From IMG/VR virus record IMGVR_UViG_3300025429_000005, positions 1 through 36,342 of that record: a stretch of DNA of 36,342 nucleotides; one strand, given 5' to 3'. Shown here one piece after another: positions 100 through 29,453 of this stretch (its first letter is position 1; each line of letters begins with the position of its first letter). This stretch comes from a virus (taxonomy: Duplodnaviria; Caudoviricetes). Made by a program: the position numbers and the translations under genes. Below the pieces are notes generated by a model. The model was not told the DNA's origin and made no database searches. It saw nothing but the letters and a program-made list of their open reading frames with translations.

Positions 100-356
100 C
101 AGCAAATGAACTAGCAGATATAAATGAGTGGTCTTGTTGTGCTCATAGTAAACAAGTTTCTGCCATGCTACGTCAACAAGCACAAGAAATAGAAGCGTTA
201 AATAATGCAGTAGATTCTTTAGTATTAAATAATGTTTTGTGGGAGTTAACAGATGAGGAAATACTAGCCCTATGGGTAAAGAAAAACAATCTAAATGGTG
301 CTAAAGATATTTTAGATTTTGCTAGAGATTTATTAAAGAAAGCGAGTGAGAAATGA
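77..356 (+). repeat. 23-bp perfect direct repeat TAAAGAAAGCGAGTGAGAAATGA at 77-99 and 334-356
   Basis: Both copies are visible. Each encodes KKASEK-stop and contains the ATGA stop/start overlap for the next gene. Confidence 0.9.
96..356 (+). CDS. Hypothetical phage protein (86 aa) with ELTDEEI...LKKASEK module
   Basis: ATGA coupling at both ends. Shares ELTxEEI and LKKASEK with the upstream gene. Confidence 0.8.
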   Translation: MTANELADINEWSCCAHSKQVSAMLRQQAQEIEALNNAVDSLVLNNVLWELTDEEILALWVKKNNLNGAKDILDFARDLLKKASEK

Positions 357-1735
357 AAATTGTTGTCATTACGCCCACAACAGGAAAAGAAACATTGCAA
401 AGAGCTATTGATTCTGTCAAAGCACAGACTATGAAATGTGAACATTGGGTGATTGTTGATGGAAAATTCGATTTTTCTTGTGACGCAGACGTTGTTATTC
501 ATTTACCAGAAAATACGGGAAGGGCAGGCGGTATTTTATGGAATGGTCAACGCATCTACGCAGGTATGCCGTTTATGATCAATGCAGATTATATGCTGTT
601 CTTAGATGAAGATAATTGGTTTGAACCAACACATGTCAATGATATGGTGTTTAAATGTGAATCGGAAAACCTAGCATGGTGCTATTCACTGCGCAGAATC
701 TTTAATACAGAAGGCGAATACGTCTGTAATGATGACGTTGAATCACTTGGCAAACTCTCTAGCAATCCAGATACATTTGTGGATATGAACTGCTATTGTG
801 TTAGAGGGGATGTCTTACCTACTTTATCTCCAGCTCTCTATCATGGTGGCTGGGGTGAAGATCGTGCATTTTATCAAGCGCTTGTAGATAATGCACCACA
901 ATTTGAGTGTACGAATGGCTATACCGTGAACTACACTGCACCCGATCGTTTATTACCCATGTTTTTAAATAACCAAAAAAAGGAAACTCAAATGGCATCT
1001 ATTTTTATTGCAACACCTATGTATGGCGGTATGTGTGCAGGATATTACACACAATCTATTCTCCAACTTTCCGATTTACTCAAACAACACGGTATTGAGA
1101 ATACTTTTAGCTTTATGTTTAATGAATCTCTCATCACCAGAGCAAGAAATGCACTTACAAACGCATTTTTAAAGAAAGAGGGCTGCACACATCTCATGTT
1201 TATTGATGCAGATATTCACTTTAAACCGCATGATGTATTAAGTCTTTTACAAGCTGATAAAGACATTATTTGTGGCATCTATCCTAAAAAAGAAATCAAT
1301 TGGCATGGTGTAGAGAAGGCAGTTAAAAATAACGTGCCACAGGATCAATTAAAACGTCATACAGGCAGCTTTGTAGTGAACTTAGTAGGTTATGCAGGAG
1401 AAGTAACTGTACCGATTAATGAACCCGTAGAAATCTTTAATGGTGGCACTGGATTTATGCTTATCAAACGTGAAGTATTTGAAAAAATGAAAGATTCTAT
1501 GCCGTTCTACTTAAATGATGTGACTGATTTAGGCGGAAACATGGAACAGCAAGACAAGATTACAGAATATTTTGCAACCAGCATAGAACCAGAAACAGGC
1601 AGATTGTTGTCTGAAGATTATCACTTCTGTTACAACTGGCGCAAAATGGGTGGTAAAGTGTATGCTGCCCCGTGGGCTGAGTTATCCCACATTGGAACAT
1701 ACGCTTTTGATGGCAGACTTACTCCTGCCGCATAA
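353..1735 (+). CDS. Two-domain glycosyltransferase: N-terminal GT2-like domain plus a second GT-A-fold domain
   Basis: N-domain: VVITPT start, WVIVDG, LFLDEDNW (DxD), WGED. C-domain from M214: IFIATPMYGG, MFIDADI (DxD), GTGFMLIKREVF, LSEDYHFC, LSHIG. Confidence 0.8.
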   Translation: MKIVVITPTTGKETLQRAIDSVKAQTMKCEHWVIVDGKFDFSCDADVVIHLPENTGRAGGILWNGQRIYAGMPFMINADYMLFLDEDNWFEPTHVNDMVFKCESENLAWCYSLRRIFNTEGEYVCNDDVESLGKLSSNPDTFVDMNCYCVRGDVLPTLSPALYHGGWGEDRAFYQALVDNAPQFECTNGYTVNYTAPDRLLPMFLNNQKKETQMASIFIATPMYGGMCAGYYTQSILQLSDLLKQHGIENTFSFMFNESLITRARNALTNAFLKKEGCTHLMFIDADIHFKPHDVLSLLQADKDIICGIYPKKEINWHGVEKAVKNNVPQDQLKRHTGSFVVNLVGYAGEVTVPINEPVEIFNGGTGFMLIKREVFEKMKDSMPFYLNDVTDLGGNMEQQDKITEYFATSIEPETGRLLSEDYHFCYNWRKMGGKVYAAPWAELSHIGTYAFDGRLTPAA

Positions 1736-2432
1736 AGATTAAATTAACAAATGTTTGAGAGCAGAGAATATAACCTTTGCTCTCTAACAATTCCATCATC
1801 TTATTGATTGTGCCAGGCGCAAATTCCTCACTCGGCTCAACCATAATAATAAGCGGTTTGTATTTGTCAAAATCAATGTCTGCAAGGATGTTGTAATCAT
1901 AACCCTCAATATCAATGCTTAAAATAATGTCTACATGTCTTGGTAAGTGCATCTGATCAAATAAACTGTTGATGCGTATTGCAGGAACATGTATCACACC
2001 ACTGACTTCACCTTCTTTCCATGCTTTGACAAAATCCTTGTTTAAAGAAGATATTTCATTGTCTGGAGATAAGTAAAACTCTACTTCTGCAACATCTTGA
2101 TCCGTCACAGCTGCATTGATAATGGTGTCATTGTGTCTATGTTGCTGTAATTGCGGTATAAGGTCAGGATTAGCTTCTACTAGCACAGTATGAATACCCA
2201 TTTTTTGTTTAAGTAAGAAACTTGCACTGGTAGCTACTGGATGGTTTGCGCCAATTTCAAAAAAGATTAAATACATCATTTTCTTTGTGCGCAGCATATA
2301 CGCCCGTAATAAAGACTCTAAAATGACATCTTCATAGGCTTGTGAATAACTTGGTTGCAATTGCACAGGAATCGTGGGATGTTCCATGTGATTATCAGTA
2401 ATGTGTTGATATATGTATGGATTAAGGTGCAT
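1719..2432 (-). CDS. FkbM-family SAM-dependent methyltransferase
   Basis: SYSQxxED, EIGANHP, VLVEANP, SIDIEGYD and KPLIIMVE motifs typical of FkbM/Methyltransf_21. Confidence 0.8.
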   Translation of the reverse strand: MHLNPYIYQHITDNHMEHPTIPVQLQPSYSQAYEDVILESLLRAYMLRTKKMMYLIFFEIGANHPVATSASFLLKQKMGIHTVLVEANPDLIPQLQQHRHNDTIINAAVTDQDVAEVEFYLSPDNEISSLNKDFVKAWKEGEVSGVIHVPAIRINSLFDQMHLPRHVDIILSIDIEGYDYNILADIDFDKYKPLIIMVEPSEEFAPGTINKMMELLESKGYILCSQTFVNLIFMRQE

Positions 2433-21909: not shown

Positions 21910-22920
21910 TTATAGTGAAATTGAGTTATAACCAGTCACACGAGTCATGGACTTAGGTTTAGTAGAAACTAATTCTGCAATCATAAGTACTGCACCGACA
22001 TAACCAATCTGCCAGTTCGGTAAAGTTGATTCAAAACCAGTAAATACAAACGAACCTTGATCGTGGATGTATAAACTCAAGTAGTTGGAGTTAATAAAAT
22101 ACAATGTGCCTTCAGGACAGTATGGATCTGGATAAATAGGAACACCAGCAACCATCAATGCTCTAAACGCAGCTTGTGGACCATTTGCATCACCATCAAA
22201 CGCATGACCTGGAGTAATCACATATTGCTCTTGACCTACAAAGTCTTGTGCTAACAATGTCCATGTACCAAAACCACATACACCAAATGTAGGCACTTCC
22301 GCTCCGTACTTGACAGTACCAGAGATGTATTGCAATACGTTTTGACGTGTTGGATTGACGTTACCAGCATTGTAAACTTTAGATTTCCACCAACCGTATG
22401 TAGAACGGTTAATGTTTCCGTAAGTTGCTAAGTTTGTACCGTCATCAATTGCACCAGGTAATCCAATAAATTGTTGGGTATTAGTGTAATTGTTGTAAAG
22501 AGCAGTAGCCATCGCATCCATCATGACGTTTGTAGCGTCATTCATACGGGCTTCAATTAATGGGATGATTGCGTAGTCTTGTTGCACTGCGCCTTCCATA
22601 CCGAGAAACGGTACAGGAGAAATCATCAGTTTAAGGTTAAATTCAGCAAGGAAAGCACCTTGTTGGACTGAAGGTTGCGTAAAGCTACCTGAATAGTCCG
22701 ACCACTGTGCGTTCACAAACTGTGCGCCTTGCACAGGTACTGAAACTTGGGATACACCACCAGAGGCTTGTTGACTGTTACCAATCAAAGCAGCCATTAA
22801 CGGTGTGCTGTTATAAATTTGTACAACCAACTTAGGGATAAATGCACGGCGTGTAACGTAGGTTAACTCGTTATACTGTGAACTACCCGAAGCTGGTACT
22901 ATTCCGCCTCCAATTGGCAT
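21910..22920 (-). CDS. Major capsid protein
   Basis: About 336 aa after scaffold-like genes; QIYNSTPL, GLPGAIDDG, YGNINRSTYGWW, GVPIYPDPYCPEGTLYFINSNY. Start 22920 follows AGGAG. Confidence 0.85.
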   Translation of the reverse strand: MPIGGGIVPASGSSQYNELTYVTRRAFIPKLVVQIYNSTPLMAALIGNSQQASGGVSQVSVPVQGAQFVNAQWSDYSGSFTQPSVQQGAFLAEFNLKLMISPVPFLGMEGAVQQDYAIIPLIEARMNDATNVMMDAMATALYNNYTNTQQFIGLPGAIDDGTNLATYGNINRSTYGWWKSKVYNAGNVNPTRQNVLQYISGTVKYGAEVPTFGVCGFGTWTLLAQDFVGQEQYVITPGHAFDGDANGPQAAFRALMVAGVPIYPDPYCPEGTLYFINSNYLSLYIHDQGSFVFTGFESTLPNWQIGYVGAVLMIAELVSTKPKSMTRVTGYNSISL

Positions 22921-22955
22921 AATCAACTCCTATAGTAAATATCCCCTATTTACAA

Positions 22956-23705: not shown

Positions 23706-24227
23706 TTACATAGGTTGTGGTGGAGGCATACCACCAGGAGGAGGACCACCAGCACCAGCGCCCATTGGAGGCATTGGAGGAGAAGGTGCGCCACCAGGTG
23801 ACATACCAGGAATCAACGGTGCTTGTTGCATTGCTTTACCTTCAGGCGTTGCACCACCAGCTTGAGGTAATTGTTGTAACATTTGCATGATTTCAGTTGG
23901 TTGCAAAGAATTCGTTTTTGCTCTCTTTGCACCGAGAATTGTTGTCAAGGTACGAATACCATTTAATACTTTTTGACCTTCTTCTGATTCACTGCCAAGT
24001 GCAGGCAATGCTTGCTCTAATAAATCCATTGCCATTGCAATGTTCACTAATGATGCCTCACGATTTCCCATCTTGGGTTCTGGTGTTGACATGGGAGAAG
24101 CCATAGGCGCACTACTGGGATCAGAGATACCTGTTGGTGTTTCAGGAACGGGTGGCTTTCCACCAGGAGTTGCTCCATCCTTTTGGCTTTTCAACAAGTT
24201 CATCAACTGATCTGGCGGCATGCTCAT
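23706..24227 (-). CDS. Pro/Met/Gly-rich head-module protein
   Basis: Low-complexity termini around a helical core; AGGA RBS. Confidence 0.7.
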   Translation of the reverse strand: MSMPPDQLMNLLKSQKDGATPGGKPPVPETPTGISDPSSAPMASPMSTPEPKMGNREASLVNIAMAMDLLEQALPALGSESEEGQKVLNGIRTLTTILGAKRAKTNSLQPTEIMQMLQQLPQAGGATPEGKAMQQAPLIPGMSPGGAPSPPMPPMGAGAGGPPPGGMPPPQPM

Positions 24228-24253
24228 AGTTATTTCCTATTCAATTACAAGAA

Positions 24254-24281
24254 AGATTAAACCTTTCTATCAAAATGTCAA
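24254..24281 (-). promoter_or_regulatory. Possible sigma70-type promoter for head genes
   Basis: Perfect TTGACA at 24281-24276, 16-nt spacer, TAATCT. Confidence 0.4.
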
Positions 24282-24351
24282 GTAGGGGGTAATATTTCTA
24301 TTCCCACCCCCAAAGGGAGGTTAAACGGTCAAACCGTAGAATCCTTGCGGA

Positions 24352-24390
24352 TTACTTACGACCTTTACGACCTTTTCTTCCTTTACGCAT
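24352..24390 (-). CDS. 12-aa micropeptide MRKGRKGRKGRK
   Basis: ATG CGT AAA GGA AGA AAA GGT CGT AAA GGT CGT AAG TAA; AGGAG 7 nt upstream; synonymous codons vary between repeats. Confidence 0.7.
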   Translation of the reverse strand: MRKGRKGRKGRK

Positions 24391-24468
24391 GGAAAATCTC
24401 CTAATCCAAGCGGTCCACCGATTTGGGTTGGCAGCCAACACCCTTTCCTTCTCACAGGAAACCCGTGT

Positions 24469-24627
24469 TTATCCCCTCGTAGGTCTACCGCCATAATCTT
24501 TGCGAGTCCCACGACTAAAACTTTTAATACCAGTATTTTTGTACTGCATAGATGGCGTAGCACTTCTCTTTAAAGTTTCCGTAGATACTTTAGGTTGATC
24601 AGCTCTGGGCGCTACATTAATTGCCAT
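24469..24627 (-). CDS. Unannotated 52-aa basic protein
   Basis: MAINVAPRADQPKVSTETLKRSATPSMQYKNTGIKSFSRGTRKDYGGRPTRG; GGAGG RBS; TGATG overlap with the portal stop. Confidence 0.7.
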   Translation of the reverse strand: MAINVAPRADQPKVSTETLKRSATPSMQYKNTGIKSFSRGTRKDYGGRPTRG

Positions 24628-26255
24628 CATTCCTCCATCTTCATTTTATGCTGTTCTTTACCTTTTTGACCTTGAGGTTGCGGTTGTGTTGCTTTTTTCG
24701 CTTCCTCTTGCTTTAAACGGTCTTTCAGTAATTGTTTCATTGGTGGCTCTAATAAGTCAAGTAAAGATTCTTTACTAATTGCTTGCGCCTTAAATAAATT
24801 AAATGCTAACTGTTTTAAATCCTCTGTAAAGATAGGACTATTGGAGTGAGCATCCACTTTTACTACAAAATCGTCTGTAAATTGTTCTGCAATAAACAGT
24901 TTACCGTCTACATCTTTAAAATGCGTATCATCATAATTTTTCATGAGTTTTAAATACAAAGTAGCCACTTTTTCAAGGCTATCTTCTACAATCAAAGCTC
25001 TTTTCTTAGCTCTAGAGCTACCAAGACGTGCTAATTGGCTTGCATGACCTTGAGAACGGACTCCAGACTCACCTTTACCTGATAATACGTTAGAAATACC
25101 AGAAACTTCACTAAACATAGCGTCAATTTCATGGATGACTTCAAATAAATCAGGTGGCATCTCAGGAGCAAGGTTTTCAACCCTCGCACCAGGCATATCA
25201 CTAGCAATATGGCTTCCAGCACGGTTTAAAGCCAAGAATTTCTCATCCATGATGCCACTAATACCTGAAAACACTCTTGGAGGAGCTACTTGTTTACTTA
25301 ACAAGTCTAAAATCTCTGTCATACGGGTATTTCTAAGTTGTTGAAGGTTTACTAGCTTAGAAACTTCCGACACACCCCAAAAATAATCGTATTGAGGGAC
25401 TGGGCATATCTGTACAAAAGGACATTCACCTTTTAAAAACATACTTTCACCAGGTCTGTCATAAATAACCACATTAGGATTAGCAATGGTTACTACTTGA
25501 TAATCTTGCGTATCATCGTTCCATAACCAACACTCACGCATTTCCACCATATCTTCAGCAACTCTAGCTTTGTAACGGTTTGTGCCGTACAACTCCATAT
25601 TGACATTACCGTAGATAGTAGGGTTAGTTTGGGACATAACAATACGGTTTACTGCGTCTGGAATCTCAGATTCTTGTACTCGAACACCACCAACCACCCT
25701 TTTAATGATGGCATCACGTTGCGGATGGGAATAAAGACGAGCATATAACTCAGATTTAGTAATGAAATACGTTTGCACCATTGCTTCTTGACGGTCTGCA
25801 TAGGGACTATCCTCACGCAATACGCCCATAGAGGATGGTTCAATTAAGTATGGATGAATACCTTTGTTATAAACTAACTTGATAAAGGTGGTGTTGTATA
25901 CCAAAGCCCATGTCAAAGCTGTAGAAAACACTTGGTCTGCATTGGAATTAAGCCACTCATCGTTAAGCGCTTGCGTCAGAACAGGTGTCTTATGATGTTC
26001 ATTACCAGGTACAGAAGCACCTAATTGAATAGAGAATCTTGTTGTTTCTGAAGAATACAAGAATGAAGTTAACTGATCAATGTGTGGATTGATTTTGTTA
26101 AAGTATGCTGGTGGTTCTTCAGGGTTAGCACCAAAAAGGTAATATGCTCTTAAATTGGTGTAATCCCCTCTACGTTCTTCACGGGACACCATGCACTTTT
26201 CCATAATGTCAATATAGAAGTTTTCACGGTCAAGAGGATTATTTGGGATTCTCAT
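24627..26255 (-). CDS. Portal protein
   Basis: 542 aa between terminase and head genes; FNKINPHIDQL, CPFVQ...YFWGVS, EVSGISNVLSG patterns typical of podovirus-type portals. Confidence 0.8.
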   Translation of the reverse strand: MRIPNNPLDRENFYIDIMEKCMVSREERRGDYTNLRAYYLFGANPEEPPAYFNKINPHIDQLTSFLYSSETTRFSIQLGASVPGNEHHKTPVLTQALNDEWLNSNADQVFSTALTWALVYNTTFIKLVYNKGIHPYLIEPSSMGVLREDSPYADRQEAMVQTYFITKSELYARLYSHPQRDAIIKRVVGGVRVQESEIPDAVNRIVMSQTNPTIYGNVNMELYGTNRYKARVAEDMVEMRECWLWNDDTQDYQVVTIANPNVVIYDRPGESMFLKGECPFVQICPVPQYDYFWGVSEVSKLVNLQQLRNTRMTEILDLLSKQVAPPRVFSGISGIMDEKFLALNRAGSHIASDMPGARVENLAPEMPPDLFEVIHEIDAMFSEVSGISNVLSGKGESGVRSQGHASQLARLGSSRAKKRALIVEDSLEKVATLYLKLMKNYDDTHFKDVDGKLFIAEQFTDDFVVKVDAHSNSPIFTEDLKQLAFNLFKAQAISKESLLDLLEPPMKQLLKDRLKQEEAKKATQPQPQGQKGKEQHKMKMEE

Positions 26256-29257: not shown

Positions 29258-29453
29258 ACTCCAACAATTCTCTTAAACGATTAATCTCATTCTGCGCAAT
29301 CGTCAATAATCTCGAACTCTCACCATGCACACGCATCAACTCATGAAAAATCTGATCCTTATTCATCGCCCAGACACGTTGCATATACGCCTTCTTCGCA
29401 TCATCCGCAGCTACCTCAATTAACTTCTCAACCCCATTTATACCGTTCTCCAT
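29232..29453 (-). CDS. Hypothetical coiled-coil protein (73 aa)
   Basis: Operon order; heptad pattern. Confidence 0.55.
   Translation of the reverse strand: MENGINGVEKLIEVAADDAKKAYMQRVWAMNKDQIFHELMRVHGESSRLLTIAQNEINRLRELLEFDDGDAIH

Follow-up and report, generated by a model that had tools for sequence, protein, structure and literature searches.

The window analysed here, that is, the whole stretch of 36,342 bases, is a complete virus record bounded by direct terminal repeats. Genes for terminase, portal, capsid and an SU10-type adaptor lie on its minus strand (PHROG, Pfam), a combination that points to a podovirus-like tailed phage, and a GH108 endolysin and a GTA-type holin suggest that the host is Gram-negative. 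As the bins with close capsid matches, five of which were found by a genome scan on contigs of 18-43 kb, belong to unrelated taxa, no reliable host can be named. Elsewhere in the genome, a glycosyltransferase family 2 gene (353-1735, plus strand) and an FkbM-type methyltransferase gene (1719-2432, minus strand) are convergent and overlap at their ends. The present analysis concerns the region from the portal to the capsid gene, in which the following features were found or predicted, given in the order of the head-gene strand:

24627..26255, minus strand: portal gene, 542 aa, with PHROG portal matches and a Pfam SU10_portal match (E 1.7e-10)
24469..24627, minus strand: 52-aa ORF, coupled to the portal stop, with a basic C-terminal tail (+11/-3)
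24444..24461, minus strand: short hairpin directly 5' of PK1, -6.0 kcal/mol, z -0.9 when taken alone
24413..24443, minus strand: predicted H-type pseudoknot PK1, ending 22 nt 5' of the AUG of the micro-ORF
24398..24402, minus strand: Shine-Dalgarno (SD) sequence AGGAG, read from the sequence, 7 nt ahead of the ATG
24352..24390, minus strand: micro-ORF for MRKGRKGRKGRK, 12 aa, net charge +8, with the ATG at 24390 and the TAA at 24354-24352
24327..24372, minus strand: hairpin between the 3' half of the micro-ORF and downstream sequence, -14 kcal/mol, z -2.1
24285..24318, minus strand: predicted H-type pseudoknot PK2 with an A-rich loop 3 and no following U-tract in the window
24254..24281, minus strand: promoter-like site TTGACA-16 nt-TAATCT, ahead of the downstream head genes
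23706..24227, minus strand: 173-aa proline-rich ORF, the first gene past the promoter-like site
21910..22926, minus strand: major capsid protein gene (phrog_9953, E 4.6e-37)

The order on this strand is portal, 52-aa ORF, micro-ORF, three ORFs and major capsid gene, and the capsid protein matches the annotated capsids of MW202753 and MW202825 at 87%. The 52-aa ORF has no match in PHROG, Pfam or Atlas and has homologs in most close relatives. A second small basic ORF of 62 aa (23698-23510, minus strand, +10/-3) belongs to no PHROG or Pfam family, and an ORF similar to it occurs in distant relatives; both may code for further internal head proteins.

The first-pass annotation had drawn attention to the micro-ORF, and its description agrees with the sequence in the SD-7 nt-ATG arrangement, the TAA stop, the K/R content of MRKGRKGRKGRK (8 of 12 residues), the location on the head-operon strand between portal and capsid, and the differing codons of the repeats; it omitted the RNA structures around the ORF, namely two pseudoknots and a hairpin. 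Comparable ORFs with at least 40% K/R arose on average 0.06 times in 200 shuffles of the genome strand, and ORFs with at least 60% K/R never arose, so that a chance origin can be discarded. Nor is the micro-ORF an assembly artefact, since contigs from runs that are not flagged as possible sources extend across it, one being identical over 23838-24392 (X12 record 3) and another showing 3 differences in 405 nt (X20 record 16). Two other origins were considered and rejected. Readthrough or fusion from the upstream ORF would be allowed by the 78-nt gap in the window, which is open in frame, but the frame is random in relatives (16/16/17), and for a tmRNA-like element ARAGORN reported 0 genes and Rfam none, while the ORF has its own SD and AUG. 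Another SD-led basic 12-mer, MRRRRICNVSGR, starts at position 29401 of the window (minus strand) in another frame of a 73-aa ORF (29453-29232); it was seen in the closest relatives only and is likely due to chance.

Relatives were collected with the portal, with capsid proteins of growing distance, from two GenBank records and with a peptide pattern. The 192 loci that contained the portal end and 600 nt of further sequence reduced to 95 non-redundant loci; all counts exclude 75 gut loci that are very distant (L196-L270, partial matches of 22-30%). If an ORF was SD-led, coded for 8-35 aa and reached 40% K/R and a net charge of +5, it was scored as a micro-ORF. A syntenic basic micro-ORF, the search for which had been proposed beforehand, follows the portal stop within 600 nt in 88 of the 95 loci, which are related and hence not independent trials, so that counts and p-values overstate independence. 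The linkage holds down to 27-30% portal identity. The antisense strand gave 0/95 and background windows gave 6/1176, one of which is a displaced true copy. When the loci found by the peptide pattern are excluded, the micro-ORF is present in 57/64 loci within 600 nt and in 61/64 within 1300 nt, and in 17/18 such loci at 25-45% portal identity (1300 nt). It is absent from L274 within the interval scanned and from L050, a locus too short for the 1300-nt count, and L045 and L191 have only a weakly basic 20-mer; the peptide thus seems dispensable in some lineages. Fifty loci carry two copies and two loci carry three (52/88), each with its own SD, which points to dosage. The copy behind PK1 in L328 and L344 begins with GTG instead of ATG, so that ATG-only copy counts are slightly too low.

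Scans with the peptide pattern recovered the same gene context, as 117 of 120 viral loci and 112 of 114 unsorted metagenome contigs (80/80 for loci of at least 1 kb) match the head-module proteins of the window, and codon 13, which the pattern leaves free, is the stop in each of the 118 complete ORFs. The two GenBank relatives each possess two micro-ORF copies, neither of them annotated, and spurious-looking antisense ORFs have been called across the interval. The phage collection contains no cultured member with the micro-ORF. Mx8, Mx9 and BUCT555, with capsid identities of 25-27%, lack an SD-led micro-ORF of this type in the portal-to-capsid interval. Directly after its presumed portal gene, Stenotrophomonas phage BUCT555 codes for a 52-aa lysine-rich protein annotated as hypothetical (QQM14872.1; L572, 3942-4100), which is unlike the micro-peptide but occupies the same position. 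Among the 24 metagenomes listed for the sequence, all are from freshwater and from 2017; since 7 of the 24 are possible sources and the remainder may stem from one campaign, we draw no habitat argument from this. No RNA dataset is among those listed, which counts neither for nor against expression.

What is conserved in the peptide is its charge and size. Across 142 peptides, 36.7% of the residues are R and 29.5% are K (66% R+K), D and E together account for 0.2%, and the remainder is mostly G, A, S, H, T, Y and M, with F and L at 0.1% each. The net charge is +7 or +8 in 109 of the 142 peptides, a narrow range that the filter does not impose, as it only sets a floor for the charge; 114 peptides have 11-14 residues, and nearly all members fall between 9 and 19. 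Examples are MRKARKGRKSRK, MARRHRRSRRK and MYRKHKRGRKTRR, and members of 12-13 aa end with K, R or M. The RKG repeat, which had been emphasised initially, is present in the window peptide but is not the feature conserved among relatives: length and charge are kept and the repeat is not. On a minimum spanning tree of 41 distinct ORF sequences, none of which was found through the peptide pattern, synonymous codon changes number 73 and non-synonymous ones 43, compared with an expected synonymous share of 25%, and the most frequent replacement is a K/R swap. The suggestion that selection acts on the peptide is strongly supported by this synonymous excess. CGU and CGC account for 510 of 614 Arg codons in the micro-ORFs, compared with 1007 of 1685 in the portals. 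From these sequence comparisons we conclude that the micro-ORF is a genuine gene, that selection acts on its coding sequence and that it is linked to the head module.

The peptide lacks both a hydrophobic capsid anchor like that of J/VP8 and any targeting signal that could be recognised. One could imagine that it binds a specific protein, such as the portal, the terminase or the capsid interior, or a membrane, and serves as an assembly cofactor or as a lysis or exclusion helper. The portal linkage and the net acidic character of portal (+61/-73) and capsid (+14/-20) would fit such a role, but residue order is lost among distant members and hydrophobic residues are almost absent, and we regard this as a remote prospect. 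Longer forms of 23-24 aa, for instance MMYGKAKMAPKMARMGRKARKGRK, are found behind PK1 in L359, L361, L362, L387 and similar loci and look like fusions of the first-copy (MY...) and second-copy types. In the most distant members (L271, L272, L273, L277), the Arg run is preceded by an N-terminal extension (MFTERVMY..., MDKELV..., MFTKELV...), which could be a targeting tag, and L271 and L272 also carry a 33-aa Arg-rich ORF.

Upstream of the micro-ORF, the PK1 copy of the window is somewhat degenerate, with a stem 1 of 3 bp and two non-standard pairs in stem 2; the hairpin directly 5' of it is also visible by eye in relatives. In an alignment of 42 sequences, 97.9% of the cells are paired and 6 of 10 pairs show two-sided changes, a level reached by 0 of 500 shuffles and compared with 46-69% in slid controls, although the structure was derived from the same 42 sequences, which favours the pairing score. 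Changes of G-C to G-U and a coupled swap of UU/UC to UG/UG in the internal loop indicate that PK1 acts as RNA and not as DNA. Of 92 peptide-bearing loci, 52 contain PK1 by a strict pattern; an AUG follows it at 18-25 nt in every case, and where two copies are closely spaced it precedes the second (28 loci). The strict pattern detected no PK1 in the other 40, although L173, L328 and L344 are misses of the pattern, and the RNA frame is therefore not obligatory. PK1 persists, with further compensations, to 37% portal identity, and a covariance model retrieves distant copies as well as one missed by the strict pattern. On a portal tree, a quick version with 76 of 95 rows and long branches, PK1 is spread over several deep lineages, and its distribution requires at least five changes, which is consistent with an old element that was repeatedly lost while the peptide stayed. 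A search for PK1 alone gave 99 matches, and behind 85 of them an SD-led basic ORF begins within 17-25 nt; the remaining 14 have no head-gene match and look like chance. No Rfam 15 family reaches its gathering score in the window, the best weak match having an E value of 0.32 and 14 bits where 45 are needed, and going by its covariation PK1 is a pseudoknot family absent from Rfam. In the PK1-less loci L292, L300, L308, L335, L280, L294, L286 and L293, a G-run is conserved upstream of the SD, about 25-35 nt before the peptide AUG, and the group L178/L179/L180/L186/L188 has a C-rich tract before the SD and a G-run after the terminator; these tracts may be alternative leader structures.

The near-invariant bases of PK1, its fixed distance of 18-25 nt to the AUG and its specificity for this gene raise the question of whether the peptide itself is the ligand. 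According to this idea, an arginine-rich-motif RNA binder would act on PK1, the 3' hairpin or PK2 and regulate late genes, for example by autorepression or terminator control, and it could coexist as feedback with the packaging role proposed below. The start region behind PK1 is also more folded than that of a PK1-less copy in the same genome (-5.1 versus -2.3 kcal/mol, 31 related pairs), but composition accounts for a difference of this size (mean z -0.27). Occlusion of the SD as a switch, a candidate only weakly supported by this comparison, was rejected. In addition, the PK1 core is constant whereas the peptide is variable (MRKARKGRKSRK versus MARRHRRHKR), many peptides occur without PK1, and 12 residues leave no effector domain. 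We therefore consider a regulatory RNA binder quite unlikely.

Downstream of the AUG, the predicted 3' hairpin has a GCAA loop just past the stop codon and uses the next 25 nt as pairing partner. At least 4 ORF bases are paired with downstream sequence in 41 of 50 close loci (at least 60% portal identity; mean z -2.8). In 36 of 40 close TTGAC-bearing loci, the end of PK2 lies 0-8 nt ahead of TTGAC, compared with 30 of 800 shuffles; 17 and 26 sequence variants were seen for its stems 1 and 2, respectively, and PK2 shows covariation as PK1 does. Of 50 close loci, 42 have TTGAC within 170 nt, and in 31 of 37 loci a TA comes after it at a spacer of 16-18 (30% when shuffled); the full TAnnnT -10 box is a weak feature (8/37 versus 11% shuffled), and the site was not listed by a consensus scan of the window. 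We consider it the probable promoter of the scaffold-capsid genes, to judge from these sequence features. The -10 region is overlapped by an inverted repeat (24268-24250, minus strand, z -2.6), and at this position other inverted repeats are found in relatives, so that a possible operator for a late-gene regulator might be located here.

This arrangement bears on the earlier alternative of a ribosome-pausing leader, in which ribosome transit or stalling at Arg/Lys codons would remodel the hairpin and PK2 or a terminator and thereby set head-gene expression in cis. The overlap of the hairpin with the ORF end in the 41 close loci agrees with such a leader, as does the downstream G/C stem, which by a crude pattern is accompanied by a U-tract in 21 of 38 distant loci. 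With the same pattern, no more than 10 of 50 close loci show the U-tract, which is absent from the window, and the ORF hairpin (24372-24327) and PK2 (24318-24285) do not overlap, so that no exclusive switch is visible. Arg codons are common ones and not rare, the ORF is followed by a promoter-like site, and 2-3 independent copies are present in 52 of 88 loci. The tandem independent copies, the lack of a hairpin-terminator overlap and the downstream promoter-like site disfavour the leader, and we judge it very unlikely.

Charge-only conservation, duplication, common Arg codons and a structured cassette point instead to a bulk product that acts electrostatically. Because charge and not sequence is conserved, tandem copies are common and the gene was found in head modules only, a polyamine or protamine substitute, as first suggested from the window alone, is the best-fitting function for the peptide on present sequence evidence, and we infer that it could be co-packaged with the DNA. 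We propose that the locus is a well-translated polycation gene framed by pseudoknots, the product of which would screen DNA charge during head filling and probably stay in the virion, and we give this proposal an even chance of being correct. In this model, the mRNA segment between the two predicted pseudoknots would be translated at a high level into the 12-residue polycation. PK1, at the edge of the 30S footprint, would act on initiation, either as an S1/standby-type enhancer or as an operator; the enhancer role is plausible because S1 is known to bind H-type pseudoknots (PMC7708055). The 3' hairpin and PK2, or the U-tract hairpin in distant relatives, might end and protect the message, with the capsid genes using their own promoter. 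The peptide would bind phage DNA non-specifically, screen its charge as the head fills and probably be retained in the virion in place of polyamines. Thousands of copies would be needed: full neutralisation of 72,684 phosphates corresponds by calculation to about 9,100 peptides, and partial screening to far fewer. Condensing polyamines are reported to stall packaging. In phi29, stronger ionic screening slowed DNA exit by about one half and lengthened pauses (PMC10450192). A peptide with a charge of +8 could accordingly be costly. A further point against the proposal is that the gene closes the terminase-portal unit, upstream of the capsid promoter-like site, and this unit is not obviously the most expressed one.

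The latter observation, together with the lack of a capsid anchor, would also suit a bulk polycation that remains unpackaged inside the infected cell, where it might compact replicating phage DNA, bind the host nucleoid or ribosomes, or replace scarce host polyamines. Charge-only conservation and duplication apply equally to this possibility, but even at 27-30% portal identity the gene keeps its place directly behind the portal, and no other context for it turned up in the scans. Moreover, host-takeover genes are usually early. We consider a purely intracellular polycation rather unlikely. A wider version of the packaging proposal is also conceivable, in which tailed dsDNA phages of a broad clade would make a polyamine of their own, a ribosomally synthesised peptide of 9-19 aa that is expressed in thousands of copies from a pseudoknot-armoured mini-mRNA and enters the head along with the genome. 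PK1 would then be a new riboregulator, a sensor of free polycation, responding to the peptide itself or to host polyamines, and match supply to the amount of packaged DNA. This extension, sensor included, seems unlikely.

Tailed phages are generally assumed to take Mg2+ and polyamines from the host against the charge of their DNA. A genome-encoded counter-ion would, if true, change the view of the packaging force, of virion stability in dilute water and of ejection. Full-text literature searches with the peptide strings returned one irrelevant match, and the listings and abstract openings retrieved for the topic contain no description of such a peptide. Fremin et al. 2022 reportedly compiled a catalogue of phage small genes, and the micro-peptide family may be listed in it. 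The PK1 motif strings have no match in the searched files of PMC10690425, and PK1 may be among the 10,000 candidates of that work; the main text of bioRxiv 10.64898/2026.09.22.753630 makes no mention of portal, capsid or peptide. By our analysis, the locus would thus add a virus-encoded basic genome-binding peptide in a virus group for which we found no description of one, along with an RNA motif absent from Rfam. The micro-ORF gene is missed by annotation, and trypsin-based virion proteomics would destroy its product. The peptide and both RNAs are short enough for synthesis, and the locus yields a covarying pseudoknot family that Rfam does not contain.

Among known systems, the J/VP8 proteins of phiX174, alpha3, G4 and SpV4 are short, Arg/Lys-rich polypeptides linked to packaging; the SpV4 protein has about 38 aa, and structures show its hydrophobic C-terminus buried in a T=1 ssDNA capsid (PMC11281519). 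The micro-peptide resembles these Microviridae proteins in being very short, Arg/Lys-rich and phage-encoded and in its probable link to genome packaging. In contrast to them, it has 9-19 aa in nearly all members and no hydrophobic or aromatic C-terminal anchor, and it is encoded by a tailed dsDNA phage of 36.3 kb with terminase and portal. Adenovirus mu (core protein X) is a basic virion peptide of 19 aa that is associated with genome condensation in a dsDNA virus; the viral protease releases it from a precursor of 79 aa, and each virion contains 100-300 copies (PMC7998265). The micro-peptide differs from mu in that it is the primary product of its own SD-led ORF, which is often duplicated, and has no precursor; it is homologous to neither J/VP8 nor mu. 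In the type I toxin-antitoxin systems tisB and timP, a 5' pseudoknot upstream of a small-peptide ORF governs initiation (PMC7708055; PMC11228461). The pseudoknot before a small ORF is the only trait shared with them, as the composition of the micro-peptide is not that of a hydrophobic membrane-acting peptide. Compared with attenuator leaders, the locus has no mutually exclusive ORF hairpin and terminator, often has more than a single ORF and contains an intervening candidate promoter. T4 gene 32, which codes for a nucleic-acid-binding protein, has an autoregulatory translational pseudoknot upstream, and the T4 internal proteins are small proteins packed into the head by means of a capsid-targeting sequence; both are far larger than the micro-peptide. 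Protamines are small polycations without acidic residues and with long Arg runs. They offer an analogy only, as they are several times longer than the micro-peptides, in which RK pairs are spaced by G, A or S.
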